A stretch of DNA of 18,115 nt from NCBI GenBank assembly GCA_029838215.1, contig JALGVI010000057.1, positions 1-18,115 on the forward strand, written 5' to 3'. Below are positions 11,749-14,505 of this stretch, in pieces. Within the stretch, counting starts at the first letter, position 1. Each line of letters opens with the position of its first letter. This DNA is from Candidatus Helarchaeota archaeon. GTDB taxonomy: Archaea; Asgardarchaeota; Lokiarchaeia; Helarchaeales; RDOG01. Below the pieces are notes generated by a model. The model saw only the letters and a list, made by a program, of their open reading frames with translations. It had not been told where the DNA came from and searched no databases. The position numbers and the translations under genes are program-made.

Positions 11749-12039
11749 TTATCCCCCTGCCACGGGTGGGCAGATGACGATCGTGTCTCCTTCTTTTAAT
11801 TCCGTATTTAAGCCGTTTAAGAATCTGATGTTCTTGCCATTTACCAAAACCAGCATGTGATCGTGGAAAAGTCCCGTTTCCGCATTCACGAATAAATTGT
11901 CCTCGAGGAGTGCATCTCCAAACTTCTGGACGATTTTACGTTCCAAGTCTTCTATCGTGTTGCTTTCAATTTCTAACTCTTCTCTTCCGACTCGATCACT
12001 GAGGATTAATAGTAACTTCACGTGAACAAGTGGACTCAT
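11749..12039 (-). CDS. Ubiquitin-like beta-grasp protein, MoaD/ThiS/SAMP/Urm1 family, C-terminal GG
   Basis: VLVNGKNIRFLNGLNTELKEGDTIVICPPVAGG* is the typical MoaD/SAMP1 C-terminal signature. Confidence 0.93.
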   Translation of the reverse strand: MSPLVHVKLLLILSDRVGREELEIESNTIEDLERKIVQKFGDALLEDNLFVNAETGLFHDHMLVLVNGKNIRFLNGLNTELKEGDTIVICPPVAGG

Positions 12040-12042
12040 GAA

Positions 12043-13011
12043 TCAAGCTCCTTTTTTCTTTGCAGGGAAATCATAGCCACCCTTTTTCTTCTTTCCCTTG
12101 GCATCAACCGCTTCTTCAATGATCGGTTCTACAAGGTGCGTGTCTGTCTTATAGATGATTTGTTCAAGCTCACGAACCAATTCAGTCCACGTAGGAGGAT
12201 GAACGAAATCCCAATTTTTTACCGTCTGTAATATGTCTCTGATTCGTTGTGGCGGTCCAATCCTGTCTTCAAGCTCTTGAGGATATGTAAACGTGGGCGG
12301 CTTTGGATATTCTCGAAAATTCAACTTGACTTCAAAAGTCGTGCTTTCAATCTTACCTGATTCTTTCAACCCAACTGAAGATGTCATGAAGAATTTTGGG
12401 CGCGTGAAGTCAAGCTTGAGATTTTTTTCTTGCTCAAGATCCCACATGTTTTTCCAAACTTCTTTCTTCTTACCAACGACAGGGAATTCACAACCAAATT
12501 CCTGAACTAAAAGTTGTGTTTGTTCTGTTATTAATGCGTCTCGTCTTGCTAATTCCTCAGATGCGGGTGTTATGTTAGTTCGTTGCTCCACGGTCTTGTC
12601 AATTGCTGACAATTCATCATAATCTGCTGAAGCTCGAATCATGAGTTCCAATTCGGTGGAGAATTCCTTCATTCCTTTGGGCAATTTATCCGACACGAAT
12701 TCTTCTTCTGAACTAAAAATCGTCTGGAGCATTTCAGACGTTCGTCTCATGAAAGTATGAATGAGGAGCGGATCGGTGTGCGTGTCAGCTCCAAAAATAA
12801 TGATGGCAAATCCGAAATTTCCAAAATAAAAACGGTATTCTTCTCCATTTTTTAAAATTTCAATGCTACCTTCCTTCTTCTTACGAAAATATGGGACATA
12901 TGCTGCCATTACCTTGAGCATCTTTTCAAAATCAGGATAAATGTCCCAATAATCCTTATAGAAGAAGAATTTCAAGTTGGATTTTTTCACGATTGCCACG
13001 TTATGGATCAT
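12043..13011 (-). CDS. Longin domain fused to an E2-like (UBC/UEV/RWD-fold) domain lacking the catalytic cysteine
   Basis: aa 1-128 follows the longin beta-beta-alpha-beta-beta-beta-alpha-alpha pattern, starting MIHNVAIVKK. aa about 153-290 contains FEVKLNFREYPKPPTF and LQTVKNWDFVHPPTWTELVRELEQII, as in E2 folds (F-x5-YP-x2-PP ... L-x3-W ... i-x2-i-x2-ll). There is no HPN motif and no Cys in the active-site segment. Confidence 0.7.
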   Translation of the reverse strand: MIHNVAIVKKSNLKFFFYKDYWDIYPDFEKMLKVMAAYVPYFRKKKEGSIEILKNGEEYRFYFGNFGFAIIIFGADTHTDPLLIHTFMRRTSEMLQTIFSSEEEFVSDKLPKGMKEFSTELELMIRASADYDELSAIDKTVEQRTNITPASEELARRDALITEQTQLLVQEFGCEFPVVGKKKEVWKNMWDLEQEKNLKLDFTRPKFFMTSSVGLKESGKIESTTFEVKLNFREYPKPPTFTYPQELEDRIGPPQRIRDILQTVKNWDFVHPPTWTELVRELEQIIYKTDTHLVEPIIEEAVDAKGKKKKGGYDFPAKKKGA

Positions 13012-13048
13012 TAGATCGCCTCACTTATCATGTTTAATTAAACTCACT

Positions 13049-13135: not shown

Positions 13136-13507
13136 TTAATCGATTAGTTCCTCGAATATGTATTTATAGTAGTAATACGTCGAGACCGAAGCTCCAATAA
13201 GACATAGAACCGAAATAATGCAGTAGATGCCAAAAGTCACTGGAAATATCGGGTTAATACTTACTGATGTTAAATTAACTATCATGAATATAAGAGGGAA
13301 TGCGAGCAGGACGAGCGTCAGGATTCCCCACCTAAACGTCCATTTATCCTTATTTTTTCGGGCGAGAAATAGAATTAGAGCGTTTAAAGCAACTATTACA
13401 ATAGTGGCGATAAGTAATACAAGCGAAATTATGTTTGCAGGAAAAATTAATGGATTAGACAAGAAAAATACCTCATTATCTGTTGTAAAACATGTTTTTT
13501 TGATCAT
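13136..13507 (-). CDS. Small integral membrane protein (about 3 TM helices)
   Basis: Three long hydrophobic segments with a basic loop RKNKDK after TM1. Exact start uncertain. Confidence 0.7.
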   Translation of the reverse strand: MIKKTCFTTDNEVFFLSNPLIFPANIISLVLLIATIVIVALNALILFLARKNKDKWTFRWGILTLVLLAFPLIFMIVNLTSVSINPIFPVTFGIYCIISVLCLIGASVSTYYYYKYIFEELID

Positions 13508-13602: not shown

Positions 13603-14505
13603 TTAACGGCGCATGCGGGGATTCTTATAAAGGGACAACTCGAATGCGTCTGGTCTAAACTTGTATTTTTTCTTTGTAATCGCCTTGTAAAGATCTTTCA
13701 CGGAATCATTGACATCATCCAAGAATTTCGAAAGACACGCAAACAGGATTAATATTTGACGAAACGTCGGGTTGCCAGCCAAGTTTTTGTCCTTAAACTT
13801 GATTTCCCATTTGCCGCCAATGTCAATGACCTTTCCATCAACGTATGCTACTTGTTTTCCCGTAGCACAATCTTCAACTCGAAAATCCTCCCCAATGGCA
13901 AACATTTCCGACTCAATCTCAAAATACCTGAATTCCTTTGTCTTTTCATCGATTATGTAGAACATGTATCTTTGTCCGGCAAGAGTATGGTTTCTATAGA
14001 TGTTGTATACAAACTTGTCGCCTGGTAGGACAACTTTAAAGACTGGAAGAGGTTTTCTGGTTCCAATTGATAATGACATTGAATCAATCAGAGAGCTTTC
14101 AAGAGTACCTGTCCAACGCCCGCCTTTCTTGTCGTCAAGTTTTGTAAACGTCTTTATGATTATACGTCGATTCATTTTTGCCTCTTTCTTATCCTTGAAG
14201 CGTGATCTTAGCTTCGATTCATCATCAACATCCCAAGTATCTTCATTAAAAGCAATTGTCCATTCTTTGCCTTTATCTTTTCCTTGGAATTCAACTTCCC
14301 CGCGTACTTCCATTCCCTTGGTATATTGCCTGCTTTGTGCTCTCCTTTGGTCTTCACGTCGAACACCGATTGTTGCCCCATGCATCTTTGTTGCCCAAAA
14401 ATCCACGATGATTCTATCGTAAATGGTGCCTTTATCGTCAATTATTGATGGATCGAGTTCTTCTATGATATCATCTTCTGATATTTTATCTGACACGATT
14501 TTCAT
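13603..14505 (-). CDS. Tubby C-terminal / LURP-one / scramblase-like beta-barrel protein
   Basis: C-terminal half FEIESEMFAIGEDFRVED...VAYVDGKVIDIGGKWEIKF followed by the hydrophobic helix QILILFACLSKF matches the LURP-one pattern (f-x-iG-x-dF-x-i-x-d ... vA-x-vd-x-k ... y-x-i, then a core helix). Confidence 0.65.
   Translation of the reverse strand: MKIVSDKISEDDIIEELDPSIIDDKGTIYDRIIVDFWATKMHGATIGVRREDQRRAQSRQYTKGMEVRGEVEFQGKDKGKEWTIAFNEDTWDVDDESKLRSRFKDKKEAKMNRRIIIKTFTKLDDKKGGRWTGTLESSLIDSMSLSIGTRKPLPVFKVVLPGDKFVYNIYRNHTLAGQRYMFYIIDEKTKEFRYFEIESEMFAIGEDFRVEDCATGKQVAYVDGKVIDIGGKWEIKFKDKNLAGNPTFRQILILFACLSKFLDDVNDSVKDLYKAITKKKYKFRPDAFELSLYKNPRMRR

Follow-up and report, generated by a model that had tools for sequence, protein, structure and literature searches.

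An 18,115-nt stretch of contig JALGVI010000057.1 from a Candidatus Helarchaeota archaeon (assembly GCA_029838215.1; hereafter the window) carries two co-directional genes on its minus strand. On structure models, the first is predicted to encode a longin domain fused to a cysteine-less relative of ubiquitin-conjugating (UBC) E2 enzymes, and the second encodes a MoaD-type ubiquitin-like protein (UBL) of the kind that also serves as a sulfur carrier. The genes are separated by 3 nt, and the pair is confined to one genus-level lineage. A link between gene 1 and the UBL is possible; we rate a joint role of their products within this lineage as approaching an even chance without reaching it. The features of the pair are as follows.

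12043-13011, minus strand: gene 1 (P0001), 322 amino acids (aa), predicted longin domain, conserved linker, Cys-less UBC-like domain, and Lys-rich tail.
11749-12039, minus strand: gene 2 (P0002), 96 aa, MoaD-family beta-grasp UBL or sulfur carrier, ending VAGG.
12625-13011, minus strand: predicted longin domain, aa 1-129, from a block of the AlphaFold2 (AF2) model with a predicted local distance difference test (pLDDT) score of 74-89 and from Foldseek matches in the PDB.
12541-12612, minus strand: most conserved block of the family, aa 134-157, spanning a low-confidence linker and the start of UBC-like helix 1, from the alignment.
12142-12564, minus strand: predicted Cys-less UBC-superfamily domain (UEV/RWD-like pseudo-E2), aa 150-290, from the domain model and fold searches.
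12046-12141, minus strand: disordered Lys/Gly-rich C-terminal tail, aa 291-322 (pLDDT <50).
12048-12051, minus strand: GGAG Shine-Dalgarno-like element of gene 2, read from the sequence within the final codons of gene 1, 9 nt upstream of the gene 2 start.
13033-13042, minus strand: candidate TATA-like box, TTTAATTAAA, AT-rich, 21 nt upstream of the gene 1 ATG, proposed from sequence only.

Both genes are real, gene 1 as judged from its orthologs and gene 2 from its matches to curated models. An earlier note, made from the letters of this DNA, had described a two-gene unit with a 3-nt gap and a GGAG ribosome-binding site, and both open reading frames were found exactly there. The junction reads GGAG (12051-12048), TGA (12045-12043), ttc, and ATG (12039-12037). 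A look-up of sequencing runs listed none that contains this DNA. Ahead of gene 1 lies an AT-rich intergenic spacer of 124 nt that holds the TATA-like candidate.

The gene 1 sequence gave nothing significant against Pfam, NCBIfam, and the PDB. Its orthologs are 38-90% identical to it and share 50 invariant positions in the alignment. The AF2 model, built on 15 homologs, had a mean pLDDT of 75. Residues 1-129 were modeled in the order strand-strand-helix-strand-strand-strand-helix-helix (strands 2-9, 15-20, 50-55, 59-66, and 69-76; helices 28-43, 81-98, and 114-129). When this half was compared with the PDB by Foldseek, the matches were AP-1/2/3 sigma, Sec22b, VAMP7, Ykt6, and zeta-COP, with E 1.7e-4 to 3e-3 and template modeling (TM) scores by target of 0.55-0.71. 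AP sigma, Sec22b, VAMP7, and Ykt6 were matched at a probability of 1.00, and the Roadblock proteins LAMTOR and MglB ranked after the longins. No curated longin sequence model was passed above its cut-off by gene 1, which has no Pfam match, or by its orthologs, in which Fuz_longin_1 reached 24.8 bits, below the cut-off of 26.1. At the level of fold, the N-terminal half of gene 1 is thus predicted to be a longin.

The C-terminal domain was folded separately as residues 160-295 on a 26-row domain alignment, giving a model with pLDDT 85.6 and a predicted TM score of 0.76. Its layout is of the RWD type: a compact helix, a four-strand sheet, and two or three helices, without an active-site loop. An exhaustive VIA search returned UBC-superfamily proteins in 50 of 50 rows, including FANCL, UFC1, and BRE. 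Z was 8.0 for the UEV-like domain of VPS37A, 7.8-6 for E2 enzymes, 7.0 for RWDD1, 6.9 for the Tsg101 UEV, and 6.9 and 6.5 for the GCN2 RWD domain. Essentially all Foldseek rows were also UBC-fold proteins, the best being the Vps23 UEV at E 0.05, which is not significant alone. In a shape search of the ESM Atlas, the first rank went to an Asgard UQ_con+RWD cluster (TM 0.66 and a root mean square deviation [rmsd] of 2.2 across 103 residues); second came an Asgard Prok-JAB cluster, and eighth a eukaryotic RWDD1 cluster (TM 0.59). A feature search of the same atlas with gene 1 residues 150-292 gave no usable named match, and the C-terminal-domain profile found only BRE/BRCC45 rows in the PDB, all weak (E 0.18-0.47).

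The motifs quoted in the earlier note were all present, namely YPKPP at aa 235-239 (YPxPP), KNW at 265-267, and ELVRELEQII at 277-286. Neither HPN nor an active-site loop was found in the UBC-like domain of gene 1, and a conserved VHPP stands at 270-273. C174, the sole cysteine of the protein, falls in strand 1 of the C-terminal domain and is unconserved among orthologs. Because a UBC fold is modeled and a conserved Cys and HPN are both missing, we call the domain a Cys-less UBC-like pseudo-E2. The longin N terminus and the Cys-less, HPN-less E2-fold C-terminal half that the earlier note had proposed both agree with the models, with residues 150-290 modeling as a UBC-superfamily domain. In size and helix count, the modeled domain is closer to RWD or the VPS37A UEV-like domain than to a full E2; UEV, RWD, and other Cys-less UBC-like folds are inseparable with these data. 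A catalytic E2 was rejected for want of a conserved Cys and of HPN.

At the level of sequence, the tie of this domain to E2 and UEV proteins is only transitive, running through paralogous domains that Pfam calls UQ_con. A hidden Markov model (HMM) built from gene 1 orthologs only, with an ~65-residue core corresponding to aa 222-287, matched residues 38-99 of P0021 (E 0.0047) and residues 11-97 of P0024 (E 7.6e-5). Pfam assigns the matched regions of both proteins to UQ_con (30.8 bits against a cut-off of 27 in P0021). The same core recurs in tandem in other Asgard proteins, parts of which are annotated by Pfam as UQ_con and RWD. Pfam RWD (PF05773) itself had no match in gene 1; its matches sit in other domains of the paralogous proteins.

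Eleven positions of the conserved block are invariant (D138, T140, E142, R144, T148, A150, S151, E152, E153, R156, and R157), and its linker part, aa 134-149, had pLDDT <50 in the AF2 model. The block may serve as a partner-binding motif. The basic tail that follows the pseudo-E2 domain is kept in gene 1 orthologs and is longer in those of 38% identity, where it ends in a zinc ribbon. An ortholog of ESCRT-I (endosomal sorting complex required for transport I) Vps23 was considered and rejected, as the domain is followed by just the 32-aa disordered basic tail and by no coiled-coil stalk or steadiness box. The distant orthologs P0011, P0012, and P0013 (~38-43% identity; L029:5565-6734) carry an ~70-aa Pro/Lys-rich extension that ends in a CxxC...CxxC zinc ribbon, and a gene for a Roadblock/LC7 protein with a zinc ribbon is located two genes upstream of the gene 1 ortholog in L029.

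Gene 2 passes TIGR01687 moaD_arch (67.6 bits against 49.5) and Pfam ThiS (44.2 against a cut-off of 22.5) and has a free C-terminal GG, in keeping with the beta-grasp protein ending VAGG that had been read from the sequence. It fell below the equivalog cut-offs of SAMP1 (44.4 against 60), Urm1_like (25.4 against 70), and TIGR01682 (21.5 against 66.15), and scored 18.4 on Pfam Urm1, under the cut-off of 21.8. Of the six ThiS-family genes in the genome, three pass TIGR01687; its one MoaE gene is on another contig. Since three such paralogs accompany a single MoaE, at least one of them is free of duty in molybdenum cofactor (Moco) synthesis. Close homologs of P0002, 70% and 63% identical, each stand directly behind a gene 1 ortholog. 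In a tree of MoaD-type paralogs, the three pair-linked UBLs formed a clade of their own with support of 94/93; the deeper nodes lacked resolution and gave no placement for where these UBLs came from. Proteins of the SAMP/Urm1 type serve both as sulfur carriers and as modifiers. Some MoaD_arch-type UBLs have two residues after the GG, ending GGYL, GGAI, or GGAT (L049:1480-1779, L050:1489-1785, and L024:1468-1782 [G000:C57]), and would have to be processed at the C terminus before they could be activated.

Gene 1 orthologs were found in 7 of 7 genomes of the order to which the window belongs (Helarchaeales-like Lokiarchaeia) and in none of the 54 genomes of two sister families searched with gene 1 as the query. 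Large protein collections hold about a dozen gene 1 clusters. A MoaD-type gene stands behind gene 1 in three contigs only. These are the window (3-nt spacer); L046, from a Helarchaeales metagenome-assembled genome (MAG), with gene 1 90% and the UBL 70% identical and a 19-nt spacer; and L030, with 77% and 63% identity and a 12-nt spacer. In L046, the downstream flank has changed to an AsnC-type regulator and a NUDIX gene, and the pair is intact. Orthologs of ≤50% identity, at least 9 loci, all lack the UBL; the loci compared were L027, L028, L029, L038-L043, L121, L122, L124, and L129. The conservation on which the earlier note's reading depended therefore holds for the window and its two close relatives and is gone behind all more distant orthologs; the pair is, for the most part, not conserved.

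Upstream of gene 1, the window contains two further genes that bear on the history of the pair.

13603-14505, minus strand: P0026, 300 aa, of no known family, the older conserved neighbor upstream of gene 1.
13136-13507, minus strand: P0027, a 123-aa open reading frame whose translation is predicted to be a multi-pass membrane protein, between P0026 and gene 1.

A P0026 homolog is located directly upstream of gene 1 in eleven loci (L030, L038, L028, L029, L040, L039, L121, L124, L125, L127, and L128), and within the class P0026 occurs in 54 of the 61 genomes. Sequence searches of Pfam and the PDB matched P0026 to nothing, and its ESM Atlas features gave weak leads only, Scramblase and LOR/Tubby-C-like (0.87). 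P0027 occurs only in the close relatives of the window, the lineage that also gained the UBL, with a weak fragment match in L030; it is missing between the P0026 homolog and gene 1 in L028, L029, and L038. Because distant orthologs lack the UBL while the P0026 homolog stays upstream, the unit of P0026 and gene 1 is the older one, and the UBL joined it recently.

The remaining genes of the window are archaeal and include a histone, TrmB-type regulators, GatCAB, a fucose isomerase, and an aminotransferase. MAGs carrying relatives of both genes are labeled Helarchaeota/Helarchaeales or Lokiarchaeota. In line with the earlier note, the window holds no Moco or AOR gene, and no E1 gene was found in it. 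Pfam identified no ESCRT gene adjoining the pair.

UBLs related to P0002 have a different neighborhood in a sister family.

L083-L105 (e.g., L094:170-2858 and L100:176-2878): conserved three-gene array of ThiI (THUMP+ThiI, ~406 aa), a MoaD-type UBL (93 aa, ending GG), and a Gtr1/RagA-type GTPase (~310 aa).

There, the UBL nearest P0002 is flanked by a ThiI-type sulfurtransferase in 19 of 23 loci and by the GTPase in 20 of 23; the loci are from related genomes and hence not independent. Among the six paralogs of the genome under study, P0002 is the one that these ThiI-linked UBLs match best. No UBL adjoins the genome's own ThiI (G000:C168). The earlier note had allowed that UBL orthologs lying consistently in Moco/AOR operons would speak against it; this was not so for the nearest relatives in the sister family, which adjoin ThiI and a RagA-like GTPase. 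The ThiI context supports a sulfur-carrier ancestry of the UBL, and it suits the role of a sulfur carrier no less than that of a modifier. The Rag-type GTPase neighbor deserves mention because GTPases of this kind usually have longin and roadblock domains as partners.

The pseudo-E2 domain type was found in five further places of the same genome. At G000:C155:19010-21574 (L073:8010-10575, minus strand), a 423-aa protein with two gene 1-type copies and a third domain scoring as UQ_con/RWD is encoded directly upstream of a 412-aa ThiF-family E1-like gene. Such multi-UBC-like proteins are conserved across the class, in forms of 550-590 aa, and an adjoining E1 gene was not seen in the sister-family loci, so the E1 neighbor in this genome is not a conserved association. 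A 249-aa protein at G000:C145:131-880 (L074, minus strand) has a longin/roadblock-like N terminus (weak Intu_longin_1 match) followed by a pseudo-E2 domain, and by this paralogous architecture the longin and pseudo-E2 combination occurs twice in the genome. On G000:C13 (L075:2484-4527), a Roadblock/LC7 gene is immediately upstream of a gene for a 427-aa protein with two pseudo-E2 copies and an RWD domain, and on G000:C131 (L076:2736-6657), a 518-aa pseudo-E2 protein is encoded two genes from a VWA-RING finger protein. The JAB-bearing Asgard cluster of the ESM Atlas shape search has the pseudo-E2 fold too. The pseudo-E2 domain is thus an Asgard domain type that is elsewhere fused or adjacent to E2-like, RWD, JAB, E1-like, RING, and roadblock/longin proteins. 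A UBL-related docking role is plausible because the domain type keeps company with UBL machinery and with longin and roadblock proteins, and the domain is most likely a docking module for a component of the ubiquitin-like machinery. The genome's stock of such machinery comprises eight ThiF-family E1-like genes, three true E2 genes, and one ubiquitin-E2-E1 operon. The latter is a compact, eukaryote-like cluster of ubiquitin (PF00240), E2 (UQ_con, 110 bits), and E1 (ThiF) at G000:C112:18436-19884 (L060/L064); a second E1-E2 pair lies on C122.

We favor the following explanation. Gene 1 would encode a non-catalytic adaptor restricted to the window's order of Lokiarchaeia (Helarchaeales-type) and composed of a longin platform, a short and highly conserved linker motif, a pseudo-E2 docking module, and a Lys-rich tail. 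Its ancestral genomic partner would be the upstream P0026 and not a UBL. In the genus-level lineage of the window, one of the three MoaD_arch paralogs would have come to lie immediately after gene 1, with its translation coupled to that of gene 1. The UBL and the adaptor may act together, and in this lineage alone, either because the pseudo-E2 domain docks the UBL non-covalently or because the UBL targets the adaptor or the adaptor's Lys-rich tail. The folds, the missing catalytic Cys, the operon-like coupling, and the narrow range of the pair are shown, whereas an interaction of either a physical or a functional kind is inferred. In its favor are the two folds, the sequence link of the C-terminal domain to UQ_con regions, the UBL and longin surroundings of the domain type, the three TIGR01687-passing paralogs beside a single MoaE, and the retention of the pair in three contigs although identity has fallen to 90% and 77% for gene 1 and to 70% and 63% for the UBL. 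A complex prediction with gene 1 residues 1-295 and the UBL scored 0.00, which weighs neither for nor against binding.

Several observations weigh against this explanation. The VIA Z values of 6-8 fall where the tool warns of a common arrangement, yet every row belongs to one superfamily, and when the domain profile was aligned by hhalign to the three true E2s of the genome, the match lacked significance (E 0.031, probability 1.6%). Behind orthologs of 50% identity or less, there is no UBL, the next gene being convergent or unrelated. The L028 locus keeps the window's order of GatCAB, an ~300-aa gene, gene 1, and a small membrane gene, minus the UBL, and the same-family genome G201 is also without the pair. 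Elsewhere in the class, the 29 UBL loci with the best scores were all without a gene 1-like or pseudo-E2 protein within 1.5 kb, and the ThiI neighborhood of the P0002-like UBLs points to sulfur transfer.

A tentative alternative, which we regard as possible but somewhat improbable, is that the adjacency is a lineage-specific rearrangement with no direct functional link. The UBL would then be a sulfur carrier for Moco or for ThiI-type tRNA/thiamine thiolation, as suggested by the sister-family arrays (ThiI in 19 of 23, GTPase in 20 of 23) whose UBLs match P0002 best and by the genome's own ThiI, which has no adjoining UBL. Gene 1 would work with P0026, the conserved neighbor where the pair is missing (all orthologs at ≤50% identity), and perhaps with small GTPases. 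Its pseudo-E2 domain would be a protein-protein scaffold of the RWD type, as known from the kinetochore and GATOR2 RWD proteins; RWD scored as well as UEV in the fold search (Z 7.0 against 6.9-8.0). However, a random landing would hardly lead one to expect the 3-nt coupling with a ribosome-binding site within gene 1, or a pair that three diverged contigs have kept even where the flank changed. The UBL tree also leaves orthology with the ThiI-linked copies unresolved, and the dual role of SAMP/Urm1-type proteins makes a ThiI link compatible with a modifier role.

In the full reading of the earlier note, gene 1 could be a dedicated UEV-type reader of a SAMP/Urm1-like modifier and the pair a parallel UBL-dependent sorting system, by analogy with the reading of ubiquitin by ESCRT-I Vps23/TSG101. 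The VPS37A, Vps23, and Tsg101 UEVs are among the top fold matches, longin is a trafficking-type fold, and the UBL is tightly coupled to gene 1. Yet UEV, RWD, and E2 proteins are tied in Z, the 32-aa tail stands where a stalk and steadiness box would be expected, the two genes are paired in a single genus-level lineage, Pfam identified no ESCRT gene beside them, and the genome has a separate canonical ubiquitin-E2-E1 operon for ubiquitin-type signaling. All that speaks for UBL reading is the tight operon kept within that lineage, and the claim is weakened by the lack of the pair in all other orthologs and by the place of related UBLs beside ThiI; as a whole, this reading is quite unlikely. To a similar degree improbable is that gene 1 is a cofactor or substrate of conjugation, whose pseudo-E2 domain docks a UBL-charged E1-like enzyme so that the Lys-rich tail or bound clients are modified. 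RWDD3 aids Ubc9, and helix 1 of the UBC fold is the E1/E3-binding helix of E2 enzymes. In gene 1, this helix starts with the most conserved motif of the family, the Lys-rich tail is conserved, the paralogous triple UBC-like protein adjoins an E1-like gene, and eight ThiF-family genes are present in the genome. This reading is entirely inferential; the window has no E1 gene, and the E1 adjacency of the paralog was not seen in sister-family loci.

A bolder reading is that a MoaD/SAMP-type UBL was recruited in one Helarchaeales lineage as the ligand of the longin-pseudo-E2 adaptor, which would make the pair an archaeal module for UBL reading and tie a sulfur-carrier-type modifier to a longin (small-GTPase/trafficking) platform. 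We consider this unlikely. If it were true, the ThiI-UBL-RagA-like GTPase array would be a second sign of a UBL subfamily wired to Rag/longin-type signaling. In eukaryotes, Urm1 is linked to tRNA thiolation and nutrient signaling, and RWD/longin proteins (GATOR) are linked to Rag GTPases; the archaeal arrangement would echo both. Interest in Asgard archaea stems from the precursors they may hold of trafficking and ubiquitin signaling in eukaryotes, and the conserved fusion of a longin with an inactive E2-like domain unites the two toolkits physically in an archaeon. If the lineage-specific coupling of the UBL reflects binding, the pair would be a simple, testable example of a UEV-like module that reads a UBL other than ubiquitin; if it does not, it would be another product of Asgard domain shuffling next to a relocated sulfur-carrier gene.

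Comparison with known systems places each part of the pair. The longin domain is, in eukaryotes, a platform that binds small GTPases, SNAREs, or coat subunits. Gene 1 has its fold and order of secondary structure in common with longin proteins (the N-terminal domains of AP sigma/mu, Sec22b, VAMP7, Ykt6, and the first longin of MON1/FUZ), but it carries the pseudo-E2 domain instead of a SNARE motif, GTPase, DENN, or adaptin partner domain. The ESCRT-I UEVs (Vps23/TSG101 and VPS37A UEV-like) have a Cys-less UBC fold, as modeled for gene 1, and are among its best structural matches, with VPS37A at Z 8.0 and rmsd 2.5 over 94 residues. They differ in that there is no sequence-model match between them and gene 1, whose domain stands at the C-terminal end with just a short basic tail after it and neither stalk nor steadiness box, and in that ESCRT-I is without the longin to which the gene 1 domain is fused. 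RWD domains (RWDD1, GCN2, RNF25, FANCL, and Knl1) form the same compact helix-sheet-helix UBC-like sandwich of ~110-130 residues (Z 6.1-7.6) and, like the gene 1 domain, lack an active site and carry a proline motif behind the sheet. Pfam RWD is above its cut-off next to the pseudo-E2 domain type in the paralogous Asgard proteins. The motif is YPxxPP in E2 enzymes and YPxxxP in RWD domains, and that of gene 1 (YPxPP or YPxxP) is nearer the E2 form. Archaeal MoaD/SAMP1-type proteins (TIGR01687; Haloferax SAMP1) are likewise ~90-96 aa with a free C-terminal GG, as in P0002, which differs from the Haloferax SAMP1 type in scoring below the SAMP1 cut-off and in not adjoining MoaE, E1, or AOR.

A longin fused to a UBC-like domain, or paired with a MoaD-type gene, is undescribed in the Asgard ESCRT survey, the asCOG preprint, a 2026 structural-clustering preprint, and full-text searches, and a longin-RWD fusion was not found in the literature searched. 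The earlier note likewise knew of no description of such a pairing. Extensive lineage-specific shuffling of longin and other eukaryote-type domains is reported for Asgard eukaryotic signature proteins (10.1101/2020.10.19.343400; PMC10936438), and longin domains fused to Vps28-C or to GTPases have been described (Liu et al. 10.1101/2020.10.19.343400; Makarova et al. 2024, PMC10936438). Gene 1 is like these multidomain proteins in being a lineage-restricted combination of eukaryote-type domains, and its longin-pseudo-E2 fusion is a new case of this known Asgard domain shuffling.

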